Part shown: in pieces, positions 25,791 through 62,196 of the stretch | Numbering within the stretch: position 1 is the stretch's first letter | How the letters are laid out: every line of letters starts with the position of its first letter | Assembly (NCBI GenBank): GCA_963757055.1 | Contig: CAVWPX010000007.1 | Location: forward strand, 137,070 to 201,069 | Source of the DNA: an uncultured Chloroflexia bacterium | Lineage (GTDB): Bacteria > Chloroflexota > Limnocylindria > Limnocylindrales > CSP1-4 | Length of the DNA: 64,000 nucleotides | Direction: 5' to 3' | Notes under the pieces: model-generated | Databases searched by the model: none | What the model was told of the DNA's origin: nothing | Seen by the model: the letters and a program-made list of their open reading frames with translations, nothing else | Translations under genes and position numbers: made by a program

Positions 25791-26669
25791 TCAGGAAGCG
25801 TTGCTGACCGACACCGAGGCGAGGTACCTGCGCCGCCACGTCTCGGTGGCGTCGACGTTGTTGAACGTGTAGAGGTGCAGGTCGGCGACGCGCGCGGCCG
25901 GGTCCGCGATCACCGGCGCGAGCCCCTCCAGCAGCCCGTCGGGCTTGTAGAACCCGCCGGACCGGATCAGCCGCGCGACGAACCGGGCGTTCTTGGTCAG
26001 GAACCGATGCGTGTCCGCGACGCCGATCCGCGCCGTGATGGCCAGCAGCTTGTGCGGCTCGGCGACGCCCGGCAGCCCGATGTGCACCGGGAGCAGCAGC
26101 CCCTCCGCGCGCCGGGCGGCGAGCCACGACCCGATCGCGACCGGGTCGAAGCAGAGCTGCGTCGTCATGTAGCTCGCGAACTCGGCCTTGGCCGCCAGCG
26201 CCTCGGCCAGCGGCGCGTCGGGGATGAACGCGTGGCCCTGCGGGTAGCACGGGATGCCGATCTCCGCGAGCGGGTGCCCGATGTCGGCCATCTCGCGCAG
26301 CAGCGCGAGCCCGTCGGGGAAGTCCCCGGGCTCCTTGGCGTCGCCGCCGACGACGAAGGCGCGGTCGACGCCGGCGCCCTCCAGCCAGGCGATGAGGTCG
26401 GCCAGGTGGGCGCGGTCGCGGACCATCCGCGCGGACAGGTGCGGGACGGCCTTGAAGCCGCGGGCCTGGAGGGCCTCGCAGAGCCCGACGGTCGCCTCGA
26501 TCCCCTTGGCCGGTGACGCCGTGACCGAGACGGTCGCGCCGGCGGGCAGGTGGTCGGCCTGCTCGAGGGCGTTCTTGAGCGGCACCAGCTCGAACGTCGG
26601 CGAGGCGAGGACGCCGGCGACCGCCCGGCGCTGGGCGACCGTCAGCCGCGAGTGGCGGCGGAACAGCAC
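25791..26669 (-). CDS. metF: 5,10-methylenetetrahydrofolate reductase
   Basis: 292 aa MTHFR fold with N-terminal ELVPLKN motif; last gene of the corrinoid methyltransferase operon. Confidence 0.8.
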   Translation of the reverse strand: MLFRRHSRLTVAQRRAVAGVLASPTFELVPLKNALEQADHLPAGATVSVTASPAKGIEATVGLCEALQARGFKAVPHLSARMVRDRAHLADLIAWLEGAGVDRAFVVGGDAKEPGDFPDGLALLREMADIGHPLAEIGIPCYPQGHAFIPDAPLAEALAAKAEFASYMTTQLCFDPVAIGSWLAARRAEGLLLPVHIGLPGVAEPHKLLAITARIGVADTHRFLTKNARFVARLIRSGGFYKPDGLLEGLAPVIADPAARVADLHLYTFNNVDATETWRRRYLASVSVSNAS

Positions 26670-26672
26670 GGG

Positions 26673-28208
26673 CTAGACGTCCGAGTCGGGCTGGGCGGCC
26701 TTGCGCCTGACCATGAACTCGAGGAGGGCTTCGTCGGTCGCGTCGTCGAGCGGCGGCGCCTCGTACTCGGCCAGCATCCGCTTCCAGATGGCGTTCGCCC
26801 GCTGGTTCGCGTCGAGCGAGCCGTCCTCCTGCCACTGCTCGAAGCTGTTGTTGTCGGCGATCTCCGAGCGGTAGAAGGCATGCTCGAAGTTGGCCAGCGT
26901 GTGGGCGTTGCCGAGGTAGTGCTGGCCCGGCTCGTTGGTGCGGATCGCGTCGATCGCCTGGCCGTTCTCGGTCAGGTCGACGCCCTTGACGAAGACGGCG
27001 GCCATCCCGCACTGGTCGGCGTCGAGGATGAACTTCTCGTAGCCGACGGTGAGGCCGCCCTCGAGCCAGCCCGCCGCGTGGAGGACGAAGTTGACGCCGC
27101 CGAGGATCGTGGCGTTGAAGGTCGCGGCGGACTCGTAGGCCGCCTGCGCGTCGGCGATCTTCGAGGCGCACAGGTTGCCGCCGGAGCGGAACGGGACGCC
27201 GAGCCGCCGCGCCAGCGAGGCCATCACGTACAGCACCAGCGACGGCTCCGGGGTGCCGAACGTGGGCGCCCCGGACTGCATCGAGATCGACGAGGCGAAC
27301 GAGCCGAGCACGACCGGCGCGCCGGGCCGGACGAGCTGCACGAACGCCATCCCGCCGAGCGCCTCGGCGAGGGTCTGGGTCGCGGCGCCCGCCACGGTCA
27401 CGGGCGACATCGCCCCGGCGAGGATGAACGGCGTCAGCAGCGTCGCCTGGTTGGCCTCGGCGTAGGCCTGCGCGGCGCCGAGCATCACGCCGTCCCAGAC
27501 CAGCGGGGAGTTGGCGTTGATCAGGCTCAGGACGACCGGATGGTCCTCGAGATACGGCGCCCCGAACAGGATCCGCGCCATCTCGACGGTGTCGCGGGCG
27601 CGCTCGGGGGCCGTCACCGAGCCCATGAACGGCTTGTCGCTGTAGCGCATGTGCGCGTAGACCATGTCGAGGTGCCGCTTGTTGACCGGCACGTCGACCG
27701 GCTCGCAGACCGTCCCGCCCGAGTGGTGGAGGTGCGGGCTCATGTAGGTGAGCTTCACGAGGTTGCGGAAGTCCTCGATGGTGCCGTAGCGCCGGCCGCC
27801 GTCCAGGTCGCGGACGAAGGGCGAGCCGTAGTTCGGGGCGAGGACCGTGTGCATGCCGCCGATCTCGACGTTCCGCTCCGGGTTGCGCGCGTACTGCGTG
27901 AACTGGCGCGGCGCGGTCGCCTGGACGATCGAGCGCGCGAGCCCGCGCGGGAAGCGGACGCGGACGCCCGTGACGTCGGCGCCGGCCTCGCGGAACAGCC
28001 GCAGCGCGTCCTCGTTGCCGCGGAACTCGAGGCCGACCTCCTGGAGGACGGTGTCCGCGTTGTACTCGATGAGCGACAGGCCCTCCTCGTCGAGGACCTC
28101 GAACGGGGTCAGCGTGCGGGTCAGGAACGGCACGTGCTCGGCGTGCGCGAGGAGTCGGGCGGCCTGCCGGGCGGCTCGACCGCCGCTGCGCCGTCGCGGT
28201 TCGTCCAT
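26673..28208 (-). CDS. MttB-superfamily quaternary amine:corrinoid methyltransferase (non-pyrrolysine; MtgB/MtpB/MtcB-like)
   Basis: 511 aa uninterrupted TIM-barrel MttB homolog (COG5598-like), no in-frame amber codon; ATG directly abuts the RamA stop codon. Confidence 0.85.
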   Translation of the reverse strand: MDEPRRRSGGRAARQAARLLAHAEHVPFLTRTLTPFEVLDEEGLSLIEYNADTVLQEVGLEFRGNEDALRLFREAGADVTGVRVRFPRGLARSIVQATAPRQFTQYARNPERNVEIGGMHTVLAPNYGSPFVRDLDGGRRYGTIEDFRNLVKLTYMSPHLHHSGGTVCEPVDVPVNKRHLDMVYAHMRYSDKPFMGSVTAPERARDTVEMARILFGAPYLEDHPVVLSLINANSPLVWDGVMLGAAQAYAEANQATLLTPFILAGAMSPVTVAGAATQTLAEALGGMAFVQLVRPGAPVVLGSFASSISMQSGAPTFGTPEPSLVLYVMASLARRLGVPFRSGGNLCASKIADAQAAYESAATFNATILGGVNFVLHAAGWLEGGLTVGYEKFILDADQCGMAAVFVKGVDLTENGQAIDAIRTNEPGQHYLGNAHTLANFEHAFYRSEIADNNSFEQWQEDGSLDANQRANAIWKRMLAEYEAPPLDDATDEALLEFMVRRKAAQPDSDV

Positions 28209-59708: not shown

Positions 59709-59737
59709 GTCGTTTCCGCGAGCGATCGGGAGATCCC

Positions 59738-62196
59738 ATGAGCCGAGGGCCACGGGTCGTGATCATCGGGGCGGGCATCGTCGGATGCTCGCTCGCGGAC
59801 GAGCTCGCCTCGCGCGGCTGGACGGACGTCACGGTGCTCGACCAGGGCCGGCTGTTCGCGGCCGGCGGGTCCACGTCCCACGCGCCCGGGCTCGTCTTCC
59901 AGACCAACGGCTCCAAGACGATGGCGGAGTTCGCCCGCTACACGGTCGAGAAGTTCAGCTCGCTCGAGCTCGATGGGCAGTGGTGCTTCCGTCAGGTCGG
60001 CGGGCTCGAGATCGCGCTCACCCCGGAACGGCTCCTCGACCTGCGGCGGCGGCACGGGCTGGCGCAGTCGTGGGGCATCGACGGCCGCCTGCTCGACCCC
60101 GACGAATGCCTGACGGCCTGGCCGCTGCTCGACCGCGAGGCCGTGCTGGGCGGCTATCTCGTCCCGACCGACGGCCTCGCCAAGGCCGTCCGAGCGGGCG
60201 AGGCCCAGGCCCGCCGCGCGACCGACGCGGGCGTCCGGTTCCTCGGCGAGCAGACCGTGACCGACATCCGCACCGAGGGCGGCCGCGTCACGGCGGTCGT
60301 CACCGACCGGGGCGAGTTCCCGGCCGACATCGTGGTCTGCGCCGCGGGCATCTGGGGACCGCGCGTCGGCGCGCTGGCCGGGGTTCCGGTCCCGCTCCAG
60401 CCGCTCGCCCACCAGTACGTCAAGACCTCGCCGCTGCCCGAGCTGGCCGCGATCGCCGCCCCGGCCGACCTCGAGGACCTGCGGCCGATCCTGCGCATCC
60501 AGGACCGCGACCTCTACGCCCGCGAACATGGCGACCGCCTGGGGATCGGCGCCTACGGCCACCGCCCGATGCCGATCGACCCGGCCACGCTCCTCACTCC
60601 GGCCGAGGCGCCGGTGATGCCCTCGGTGCTCGCGTTCACGCCCGACGACTTCGCCCCGTCGTGGGGCTGGGCCCAGGACGTGATCCCCGCACTCCGCGGG
60701 GCCACGTGCGAGGAGGGCATCAACGGCGTCTTCTCGTTCACGACCGACGGGATGCCGCTGATGGGCGAGTCGCGCGACGTGCGCGGGTTCTGGCTGGCCG
60801 AGGCCGTCTGGGTCACCCATTCGGCCGGGGTCGCGAAGGCGATGGCGGAGTGGCTCGTCGACGGCGCGCCGCAGGTCGACGTCCACGAATGCGACATCGA
60901 CCGCTTCGAGCCGCACCAGCTGGCGCCCGCCTACGTGCGCGAGCGCGGCATCCAGAACTTCGTCGAGGTCTACGACATCCTCCACCCGCTCCAGCCGATG
61001 GAGTCGCCGCGGCCCCTGCGAACGAGCCCGTTCCACGACCGCGAGGTGGACCTCGGCGCGCGCTTCCTCGAAGGGAGCGGCTGGGAGCGGCCGCACTGGT
61101 TCGAGGCGAACGCCGGGCTCCTCGAGCGGTACGAGGACCGGATCCCGGCGCGCGGCGACTGGGCGTCGCGCTACTGGTCGCCGATCGCGGGCGCCGAGGC
61201 GCTGGCCACCCGGGACGGCGTCGCGCTCTACGACATGACGTCGCTGAAGCGCCTCGAGGTCACGGGACCGGGCGCCCTCCGCTTCCTCGACGCCTGACCA
61301 CCAACCGCCTCGACCGTCCCGTCGGCAGCGTCGTCTACACGCTCATGCTCGGCGAGGACGGCGGGATCCGCAGCGACCTGACGATCGCCCGGCTCGGACC
61401 CGAGCGGTTCCAGATCGGCGCCAACGGCAACCTCGACCTGGCCTGGCTCGACCGCCACGCCCCGGCCGACGGGAGCGTCGTGGTCCGCGACATCACGGCC
61501 GGCACCTGCTGCCTGGGCCTGTGGGGGCCGAAGGCCCGCGACGTGCTGGCGACGCTGGCCGACATCGACGTCTCGAACGAGGCGTTCGGCTACTTCAAGG
61601 CCCGCTCGTTCCACGTCGGCCACGTGCCGGTGACCGCGCTGCGGCTCTCGTACGTCGGCGAGCTCGGCTGGGAGCTGTACACGACCGCGGACATGGGCCG
61701 CAAGCTCTGGGACGAGCTGTGGGCGGCGGGCCGGCCGCACGGGCTGATCGCCGCCGGCCGGAGCGCGTTCGGCAGCCTTCGCCTCGAGAAGGGCTACCGC
61801 TCGTGGGGCACGGACATGACCACCGAGCACGACCCGTTCGAGGCCGGTCTCGGCTTCGCCGTCCGGCACGACAAGGGCGACTTCATCGGCCGGGCCGCCA
61901 TCGCCGGCCGGAGCGAGGCGACCGCCGCGCGGCGCCTGGTCCCGCTCCTGCTCGACGACGCCGCCGAGGTGCTCATGGGCAAGGAGCCGGTGGTCGTCGA
62001 CGGGCGGACCGTCGGGTACGTCACGAGCGCCGCGTTCGGGTACTCGATCGGACGGTCGATCGCGTACGCCTGGGTCCCCGCCGCCGTCGCGGCAGCCGGG
62101 ACGTCGGTCGAGGTCGTCTCGTTCGGGGTGCCGCTCCGGGCGACCGTCGCCGACGACCCGCTCTTCGATCCGCGCATGGAGCGATTGCGCGGCTGA
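59738..62196 (+). CDS. dimethylglycine/sarcosine dehydrogenase-like flavoprotein (FAD oxidase domain plus GcvT-like folate-binding domain), one frameshift near 61290
   Basis: [17 protein letters not shown] motif; C-terminal aminomethyltransferase-like half in frame of ORF 59785..62196. Confidence 0.7.

Follow-up and report, generated by a model that had tools for sequence, protein, structure and literature searches.

Corrinoid-dependent demethylation of glycine betaine has been described in aerobic as well as anaerobic microorganisms. In aerobically grown Ruegeria pomeroyi, proteomics and knockouts demonstrated that MtgBCD together with RamA, DUF1638 and MetF2 is required for betaine use, and frequent co-location of MtgBCD with dimethylglycine and sarcosine genes has been reported for marine Proteobacteria (Mausz et al. 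2025, PMC12478193). In Phaeobacter, likewise under aerobic conditions, Price et al. (2018, PMC5764234) tied a RamA-like protein and DUF1638 to B12 reactivation. The anaerobic counterpart is the MtgBCA system of Desulfitobacterium hafniense and Methanolobus vulcani. For the Chloroflexota class Limnocylindria, only a passing mention of mttB/mtgB genes was found, in which they are grouped with anaerobic methylotrophy (PMC11264602). Here we describe a stretch of 64,000 nt from the genome of a soil Limnocylindria bacterium (contig CAVWPX010000007.1, positions 137,070 to 201,069; hereafter the window), in which two chromosomal clusters together probably encode an aerobic pathway for the catabolism of glycine betaine to glycine. 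A corrinoid first step combined with flavoenzymes in an aerobe is already published; what is new is the phylum-level host, the compact operon, a candidate operator and several uncharacterised conserved parts.

Genes in the window were called by third-position GC and frame plots, and the translated pieces were scanned against Pfam and NCBIfam. The GC content is high along the entire window (68-77%, about 72% overall) and the composition is uniform; mechanical lists of open reading frames (ORFs) therefore consist mostly of spurious frames. To compare relatives, the MttB-family protein of the window was scanned against one genome per species, which gave at least 80 loci with flanks of up to 10 kb, and the 47 loci with full 10-kb flanks were used for the neighbour counts. 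Nearly all of the 80 loci belong to metagenome-assembled genomes (MAGs) named "Candidatus Limnocylindrales/Limnocylindria" or "uncultured Chloroflexia", with amino-acid identities of 79-99%. An actinobacterial source, to which the GC content of 72% might point, was rejected because of these relatives. Module conservation was assessed by tblastn of all window proteins against these 80 loci, numbered from L001 onwards; every flanking ORF was clustered, and the common families were scanned against Pfam. Metagenomes were scanned with the fused OpuA permease as the query (at least 80 loci), and plasmid and secondary-replicon records were searched with the MttB protein for orthologs in cultured bacteria. 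The nearest among the listed relatives, for example those of contigs CAWKJL010000002.1 and CAWEYL010000003.1, are long-read soil MAGs. L001, the best among the listed loci, is about 93% identical in DNA over the shared stretch and is a sister species with a distinct genome. An exact-sequence look-up of the MttB protein returned no record.

Cluster A (25.8-33.7 kb) is composed of a minus-strand operon and a divergent regulator gene. The first gene of the operon (32143..32844) encodes a corrinoid (cobalamin-binding) protein, proposed for the MtgC role, with the domains PF02310 (B12-binding) and PF02607 (B12-binding_2). Its DxHxxG motif reads GDIHDIG, its top NCBIfam models are those of MtgC (200 and 173 bits, both under cut-off), and its median identity to the relatives is 93%. 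This gene is followed by those of a DUF1638 protein (31538..32140; PF07796, 86 bits; present in 58 of the 80 loci) and of a small PF13769 ("Virulence_fact") protein (31172..31528; 68 bits; at the same position in 60 of the 80). The stop of the PF13769 gene overlaps the start of a pterin-binding methyltransferase gene (30273..31175; PF00809, 100 bits; NF005719, 365 bits against a cut-off of 259), the product of which would take the MtgD role and has the MetH pterin module and MeTr as its nearest PDB entries. The operon continues with a RACo/RamA-like activase (28209..30259), which carries an N-terminal 2Fe-2S Cys motif and the domains RACo_linker, Raco_middle and RACo_C_ter (85, 167 and 284 bits). 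A non-pyrrolysine MttB-family methyltransferase (26673..28208; PF06253, 758 bits), an uninterrupted ORF of 511 aa, comes next, and a divergent MTHFR-like protein of 292 aa (25791..26669) closes the operon. The IclR-family regulator (32967..33716, plus strand; HTH_IclR and IclR_C) is encoded divergently and occupies the same position in 55 of the 80 loci. DUF1638 is tied to B12 reactivation as the genetically implicated partner of the RamA-like activase (Price et al. 2018, PMC5764234; Mausz et al. 2025, PMC12478193). The PF13769 protein has no mention in PMC5764234, by text search, or in the sections of PMC12478193 on the system. A gene annotated "virulence factor" lies within the Sinorhizobium meliloti cluster described below, and PF13769 is also found in the metagenome contig L150.

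Cluster B (49.3-62.2 kb) begins with soxB-D-A-G on the minus strand, where all four subunit families of a heterotetrameric sarcosine oxidase are found in one operon: SoxG (gamma, 49300..49851; PF04268, 58 bits), SoxA (alpha, 49848..52466; Fer2_4, SO_alpha_A3, GCV_T and GCV_T_C), SoxD (delta, 52468..52710; PF04267, 124 bits) and SoxB (beta, 52710..53952; DAO, 224 bits). SoxB is 86% identical to the SoxB proteins of L035 and L079, both of which adjoin the corrinoid operon. The plus strand then carries a betaine-aldehyde-dehydrogenase (BADH)-like gene (54046..55556; Aldedh, 560 bits), for which the BADH model TIGR01804 is the top hit at 605 bits, slightly under its cut-off of 668.6. Next comes an OpuA/ProU-type ABC importer (55600..59662; ABC_tran and two copies of BPD_transp_1) made up of an ATPase (55600-56655), a fused double permease (56652-58580) and a lipoprotein binding protein (about 58652-59662), the top models of which are choline and ProX binding proteins, both sub-cut-off. 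The last gene (59738..62196) encodes a flavoprotein of 818 aa with the architecture DAO+FAO_M+GCV_T+GCV_T_C.

An earlier note, made from the sequence of the window without database searches, had listed these genes, and each of them was recovered at, or a few bases from, the position it gave. The sarcosine oxidase, the BetB-like aldehyde dehydrogenase, the OpuA/ProVWX-type importer and the IclR regulator thus stand as described there, and its MetF corresponds to the divergent MTHFR-like protein, a weak match in Pfam (19 bits). The functional reading proposed in that note (uptake, a corrinoid first step, flavoenzymes for the second and third steps, and BADH) agrees with both the domain content and the neighbourhoods of the relatives. 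Its description of the flavoprotein as dimethylglycine dehydrogenase (DMGDH)-like with a folate-binding domain held in part: the GCV_T domain is there, but the protein aligns over its full length to the dimethylglycine oxidase (DMGO) of Arthrobacter (1PJ5) with 1051 bits versus 355 bits for mammalian DMGDH (5L46). By this comparison it is an ortholog of the Arthrobacter enzyme and a predicted oxidase, not a DMGDH.

The label "anaerobe-type", which the same note had given to the corrinoid step, did not stand. It does not fit because the components match the aerobic MtgBCD set (a MetH/MeTr-type pterin subunit, a RACo-like activase and DUF1638) and because the neighbourhood is shared with cultured aerobes. 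Orthologs of the MttB protein at 66-69% identity were found in plasmid or secondary-replicon records of Paracoccus methylovorus and S. meliloti, where they are neighboured by genes for a B12-binding protein, DUF1638, MTHFR, a methyl-tetrahydrofolate (THF):cobalamin methyltransferase and an ASKHA activase. Close to the S. meliloti cluster lie bmt and a gene of a betaine/proline ABC system.

As compared with Ruegeria MtgBCD, to the kind of which the clusters of S. meliloti and Paracoccus (MttB identity 65-69%) also belong, the window shares the PF06253 enzyme, the B12-binding protein, the MetH-type pterin subunit, the ferredoxin-ASKHA activase, DUF1638 and an MTHFR-like protein, together with nearby genes for dimethylglycine and sarcosine flavoenzymes. 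It differs in its soil Chloroflexota host, in the union of all parts in one compact operon, flanked by a divergent iclR and by a palindrome that is conserved, and in the Arthrobacter-type oxidase for the second step. In addition, homocysteine-binding MtgE (PF02574) is absent from the window genes scanned, and a single divergent MTHFR of 292 aa contrasts with the pair of MTHFR and C-terminal-domain genes in alphaproteobacterial clusters. With MtgBCA of D. hafniense and M. vulcani, the window has in common an MttB protein of 43% identity that keeps Y97, R312 and H348, an MtgC-like corrinoid protein and a RamA-type activase. In contrast to MtgBCA, F356 is replaced with Gly, the THF methyltransferase is MetH/MeTr-like instead of MtgA-type, DUF1638 is part of the operon, and the system is coupled to O2-dependent oxidases whereas MtgBCA serves anaerobic energy metabolism. 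The Arthrobacter DMGO and the corynebacterial/Arthrobacter sarcosine oxidase are resembled in the full-length DMGO ortholog, the soxB-D-A-G order and the GCV_T domain of both enzymes; the differences are the B12-dependent first step associated with them here and the exchange of DMGO for a DMGDH-like protein plus EtfAB in many relatives. The CmuAB chloromethane pathway of Methylorubrum is similar in that an aerobic corrinoid methyltransferase loads THF, followed by an MTHFR in the oxidative direction, which for the window is a proposal. However, substrate and activating-enzyme family are different, and the window MTHFR is without the type-4 motif of the CmuAB-associated enzymes (PMC11868366).

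Based on these components, the following pathway is proposed. The OpuA-type importer would take up betaine, choline or both, and the BADH-like enzyme would make betaine from betaine aldehyde. The MttB homolog, in the MtgB role, would transfer a methyl group from betaine to the Co(I) of the corrinoid protein, yielding dimethylglycine, and the MetH-type pterin subunit would hand this methyl group to THF. Methyl-THF would then be converted to methylene-THF by the MTHFR-like protein of the operon. Co(II) arising from oxidised Co(I) would be re-reduced by the RACo/RamA-like activase with ATP, a process in which DUF1638, and perhaps the PF13769 protein, may help. DMGO and then the heterotetrameric sarcosine oxidase would strip the remaining methyl groups with O2, the C1 units passing to THF via GCV_T, and IclR probably governs the corrinoid operon through the conserved palindrome.

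Each of the three steps has a folate-binding module, namely Pterin_bind in cluster A, GCV_T in the dimethylglycine enzyme and GCV_T in SoxA. Because GCV_T is found in both oxidases and a pterin subunit in cluster A, C1 units would enter the THF pool at each step; the earlier suggestion that methyl groups are funnelled into this pool throughout is therefore supported by the domain content and the known enzyme families. The domains of the Rieske oxygenase pair (GbcAB) and of BHMT (PF02574) were detected in no gene of 15-64 kb, which agrees with the earlier view that the route is not the canonical GbcAB or BHMT one.

The strongest evidence for the assignment comes from comparative genomics. The eight-gene module, with its gene order unchanged, is found in practically all loci of sufficient length (55 to 72 of the 80 loci, depending on the gene), while its neighbours vary, yet recurrently belong to the betaine pathway. 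One of these variable neighbours is a DMGDH-like protein (DAO+FAO_M+GCV_T), accompanied by EtfB and EtfA of the electron-transfer flavoprotein (ETF); the others are soxBDAG, BADH together with an amino-acid permease, and a choline dehydrogenase-type GMC oxidoreductase. In L035, L079, L064 and L075, soxBDAG is located immediately beside iclR. At least one betaine-pathway gene was found within 10 kb of the MttB ortholog in 26 of the 47 loci with full flanks. The linkage is therefore more than a matter of chance.

Metagenome loci retrieved with the permease point in the same direction. BADH-OpuAA-AB-AC forms a conserved unit there, often with a DMGO ortholog after it, and the three-gene importer unit is conserved in 80 loci. 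The DMGO ortholog directly follows OpuAC in L150, L149, L119 and L132, and L149 has OpuA, DMGO and soxBDAG in a row. In the metagenome contig L150, OpuAA-AB-AC-DMGO-MtgC-PF13769/MtgD-RamA-MttB-MetF are arranged on one strand with gaps of about 10 bases. Since several independent arrangements join the MttB module to dimethylglycine and sarcosine enzymes, betaine or a close precursor is the probable substrate.

Within the class, the second step is not uniform. About 13 to 19 loci (e.g. L004:2-2287, L015:2538-3530 and L066:157-1014) carry the DMGDH-like gene with EtfB and EtfA beside iclR in place of an oxidase of the window type. Because many relatives carry the DMGDH-like protein and EtfAB, the second step appears to alternate within the lineage, being taken by an ETF-linked dehydrogenase in some members and by an O2-dependent oxidase in others. 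A gene for a fused homocysteine S-methyltransferase and MTHFR (658 aa) is a further neighbour in 11 of the 47 relatives; it and the gene of a large B12-domain protein come immediately downstream of the module (L011:12627-14600, with the corresponding position in L003, L007, L013, L015, L016, L023, L025, L038, L049 and L052). This fusion of PF02574 and MTHFR mirrors the connection, known from the literature, of betaine demethylation with methionine synthesis; the window has neither the fused gene nor the large B12-domain protein.

Next to domain content and synteny, the substrate pocket of the MttB homolog was compared with that of MtgB. The protein is 64.8% identical to PDB entry 4YYC (725 bits) and 43.2% identical to D. 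hafniense MtgB (2QNE/9YCE, about 406-408 bits). In MtgB, betaine is bound by Y97 (cation-pi), F356 as the second aromatic residue, and R312 and H348 at the carboxylate (Picking et al. 2026, PMC13080624). Y127, R341 and H377 of the window protein correspond to Y97, R312 and H348 and are invariant across 83 aligned orthologs (Limnocylindria, L150, Paracoccus and S. meliloti). The pocket motif HAAGWLEGG, which corresponds to HTAGILQYF in MtgB, is likewise invariant in the 83 orthologs. It includes W381, located four residues upstream of G385 at the F356 position, and we conjecture that W381 may supply the second aromatic residue. Judged by the residues alone, betaine is a putative substrate.

A perfect palindrome, GTTCCAC-N3-GTGGAAC, is located in the iclR-mtgC intergenic region (32900..32916; here GTTCCAC-GAT-GTGGAAC). 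In 40 of the 80 loci (e.g. L001:5282 and L007:5173) it occurs once, at the same intergenic position; the rest of the 1.3 Mb of related sequence is free of it, and in the window this copy is the sole exact one. Thus placed, it is a strong candidate for the IclR operator. A shared operator joining the two clusters was considered and rejected, the remaining matches in the window carrying 2-3 mismatches and lying elsewhere. Two copies with 2 mismatches (24012-24028 and 24248-24264) are found downstream of the MTHFR-like gene, in a stretch of poor coding signal.

The last gene of the operon is conserved after MttB in 72-75 of the 80 loci. Its product matches the MTHFR models weakly (Pfam MTHFR 19 bits, sub-cut-off; TIGR00676 36 bits), and its top and only PDB match is 7XG9 (S6MTHFR) with 117 bits. 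7XG9 is a methyl-THF-oxidising enzyme of Sphingobium and defines the "type 4" family, which is coupled to THF-dependent demethylases and has the motifs Leu48-Pro49, Arg78 and Pro268 (PMC11868366). In the alignment to 7XG9, L48-P49, R78 and P268 are replaced by S52-P53, M82 and T268, and Pro49, Tyr267 and Phe269 alone are kept. Despite the best PDB match, assignment as a type-4 methyl-THF oxidase was consequently rejected, with Ser, Met and Thr in place of Leu48, Arg78 and Pro268, and the protein may represent a separate MTHFR subgroup. From its position in the operon and the precedent of MetF2, we infer that it would oxidise methyl-THF.

Several observations weigh against the betaine assignment. 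The specificity of this MttB clade is a putative one, and only three of the four MtgB binding residues are kept, F356 being aligned to G385. The MTHFR-like protein is devoid of the motif that defines the methyl-THF-oxidising type-4 enzymes. In the window, 21 kb separate the corrinoid operon from the oxidase/importer cluster, and no convincing copy of the palindrome is found at sox/BADH, opuA or DMGO, so that co-regulation of the clusters is unsupported. A choline dehydrogenase or oxidase is not present in the window either, and the role of BADH is therefore incomplete. Finally, nine frameshifts fall in pathway genes, and the comparison with close relatives covers just two of them, those in RamA.

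Part of these observations would also be expected if the MttB homolog acted on another methylated compound (proline betaine, carnitine, gamma-butyrobetaine, choline/phosphocholine or another quaternary amine) and its proximity to the betaine genes were incidental. MttB-superfamily substrates are diverse, only R312 and partly H348 being common to the members (PMC13080624), and genomes with the system often contain several MttB paralogs (PMC12478193). The Gly at the F356 position, the distance of 21 kb without a common operator, and the carnitine genes that adjoin the orthologous cluster of Paracoccus are in line with such a substrate as well. We nevertheless regard it as unlikely: the discriminating aromatic residue Y97 of MtgB is conserved, relatives put DMGDH plus ETF, soxBDAG, BADH or the GMC oxidoreductase beside the module in several independent arrangements, and L150 unites OpuA, DMGO and the module in one operon, where dimethylglycine is expected from betaine only. 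The trimethylamine methyltransferase activity implied by the Pfam family name is barely credible. The match to TIGR02369, the model of the pyrrolysine enzyme, reaches 250 bits against a cut-off of 525, there is no in-frame UAG or other stop, no pyl genes were seen, and the pyrrolysine-containing trimethylamine enzyme 7XCL scores 98 bits versus 408 for MtgB; by the UAG and TIGR02369 cut-off tests, genuine trimethylamine use is excluded.

Cluster A might also be read mainly as a split B12-dependent methionine synthase plus the proteins that reactivate it, instead of a catabolic demethylase. MtgC and MtgD are indispensable for making methionine in Ruegeria and Phaeobacter (PMC12478193, PMC5764234), and the fused homocysteine S-methyltransferase and MTHFR gene with the B12-domain protein downstream in 11 of the 47 relatives would suit this function. 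Yet no PF02574 gene is found among the window genes scanned, and the operon holds an MttB-family methyltransferase and has an MTHFR-like gene at its end, as suits methyl catabolism; we consider this reading very unlikely, and a dual role would be compatible with betaine demethylation. Decay of the pathway, with the frameshifted RamA, SoxA, SoxB, BADH and DMGO genes as real pseudogenes, is equally hard to favour and in our estimate highly improbable. The fragments keep their third-position GC bias and full-length homology, the RamA shifts are private 1-bp insertions, L001 bears one of its own, unrelated genes are struck too, and the relatives are long-read MAGs; these points outweigh the nine frameshifts themselves and the finding that their junctions are not obviously in long homopolymers. 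Aerobic catabolism of betaine to glycine by the two clusters is thus the reading that we retain.

The frameshifts in pathway genes are distributed over RamA (two, at about 29056 and 28455), SoxA (three, at about 50330, 51414 and 51700), SoxB (one, at about 52893), BADH (two, at about 54330 and 54964) and DMGO (one, at about 61292). Further frameshifts in the window are located at about 38598, 39085, 42914, 44154 and 45927, and upstream near 3065 and 13953. The density is about 1 per 2.5-3 kb, with roughly 14 indels in 25.8-62.2 kb, and pathway, housekeeping and unrelated genes are all struck with intact codon bias. The unrelated genes include those of an ABC ATPase, E1 alpha, E1 beta, an amidohydrolase, an upstream aldehyde dehydrogenase and a secreted peptidase-like protein (near 13.1-14.7 kb). 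All fragments retain a strong third-position GC bias. When compared with L001, L032 and L008, both RamA shifts proved to be 1-bp insertions private to the window, and L001 has a private insertion of its own in the activase gene. Because of this comparison and the spread over unrelated genes, we attribute the frameshifts, with moderate confidence, to errors of long-read sequencing or assembly. Homopolymer runs as their cause were not supported, no clear association being seen at the approximate junctions. Automated annotation of this contig would yield many false pseudogenes.

The earlier note had regarded the whole region as one island of 36 kb. All of its genes are indeed there, but they form two chromosomal clusters, the interval of about 15.5 kb (33.8-49.3 kb) being filled with unrelated genes, and signs of horizontal transfer are missing. 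Within the window, the tRNA search gave none, the Rfam search for riboswitches and other RNAs gave no match, and no integrase, transposase or other mobility gene turned up in the Pfam scans of the proteins. With no compositional break, tRNA, Rfam match or mobility gene, an island in the sense of a mobile element is therefore unsupported. A horizontally acquired genomic island was rejected on the uniform GC, the missing tRNA and mobility genes, and the vertical conservation of the module across the class.

The genes between the clusters encode an HTH-cupin regulator, an SDR protein, a bicupin, a sugar-type ABC transporter, an M24 peptidase, E1 alpha and beta, a HIBADH-like protein, an amidohydrolase, an FGGY kinase and an aldose epimerase. 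For these 15.5 kb, the Pfam and NCBIfam scans gave generic NCBIfam matches only and no betaine link. The M24 protein (41258-42496) was considered as a creatinase, which would feed the sarcosine oxidase, and was rejected with 34-39 bits to creatinases; DddP was rejected likewise, the scores being 82 bits with DddP structures and 117 bits for the DddP model, which has a cut-off of 600. In about 13 relatives, the block at 34921-46932 (HTH-cupin regulator, SDR, bicupin, sugar-type ABC, M24 and E1 alpha/beta) is next to the corrinoid module; for M24/E1 this holds in 3 relatives.

Upstream of cluster A, sulfur and Fe-S housekeeping genes are found. A row of genes at 15150-18132 on the minus strand encodes a JAB-domain protein, a PLP-dependent enzyme, a ThiS-like protein and a rhodanese-domain ThiF protein. 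We take this row to resemble the mycobacterial CysO/CysM/Mec/MoeZ system, and it looks like a cluster for sulfur-carrier-protein-dependent cysteine synthesis. NifU, SufS, SufC and Rrf2 follow at 18.3-23.5 kb. Further upstream, positions 10001-12800 show a weak coding signal, an unusually strong AT skew (-0.237 in 10001-12000) and no Rfam or tRNA match. Downstream, a second ABC system (62277-64000, plus strand) begins directly after the oxidase gene with an SBP_bac_6-type binding protein, followed by the start of a permease. In many metagenome loci, an SBP_bac_6-type binding protein lies directly after OpuAC as a conserved neighbour.

These results do not overturn the current understanding, and specialists aware of the 2025 work will not be surprised by them. 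We suggest only tentatively that the compact single-operon B12 demethylase module, with its IclR, conserved operator and non-type-4 MTHFR, belongs to the conserved core traits of Limnocylindria, a lineage of Chloroflexota that is abundant in soil; we rate this extension below an even chance. If true, oxic soils would harbour a major, hitherto overlooked process in the cobalamin-dependent turnover of betaine or other quaternary amines, and the aerobic system would contain uncharacterised components that span the lineage, namely the invariant HAAGWLEGG pocket, the PF13769 protein and the divergent MTHFR. The locus also offers an experimental handle, namely one operon with a candidate regulator and operator and three conserved uncharacterised pieces (DUF1638, PF13769 and the divergent MTHFR). 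If the assignment holds, B12-dependent betaine demethylation would reach beyond marine Proteobacteria to a widespread, uncultured class of soil Chloroflexota, and soil osmolyte and C1 turnover would be tied to cobalamin supply.

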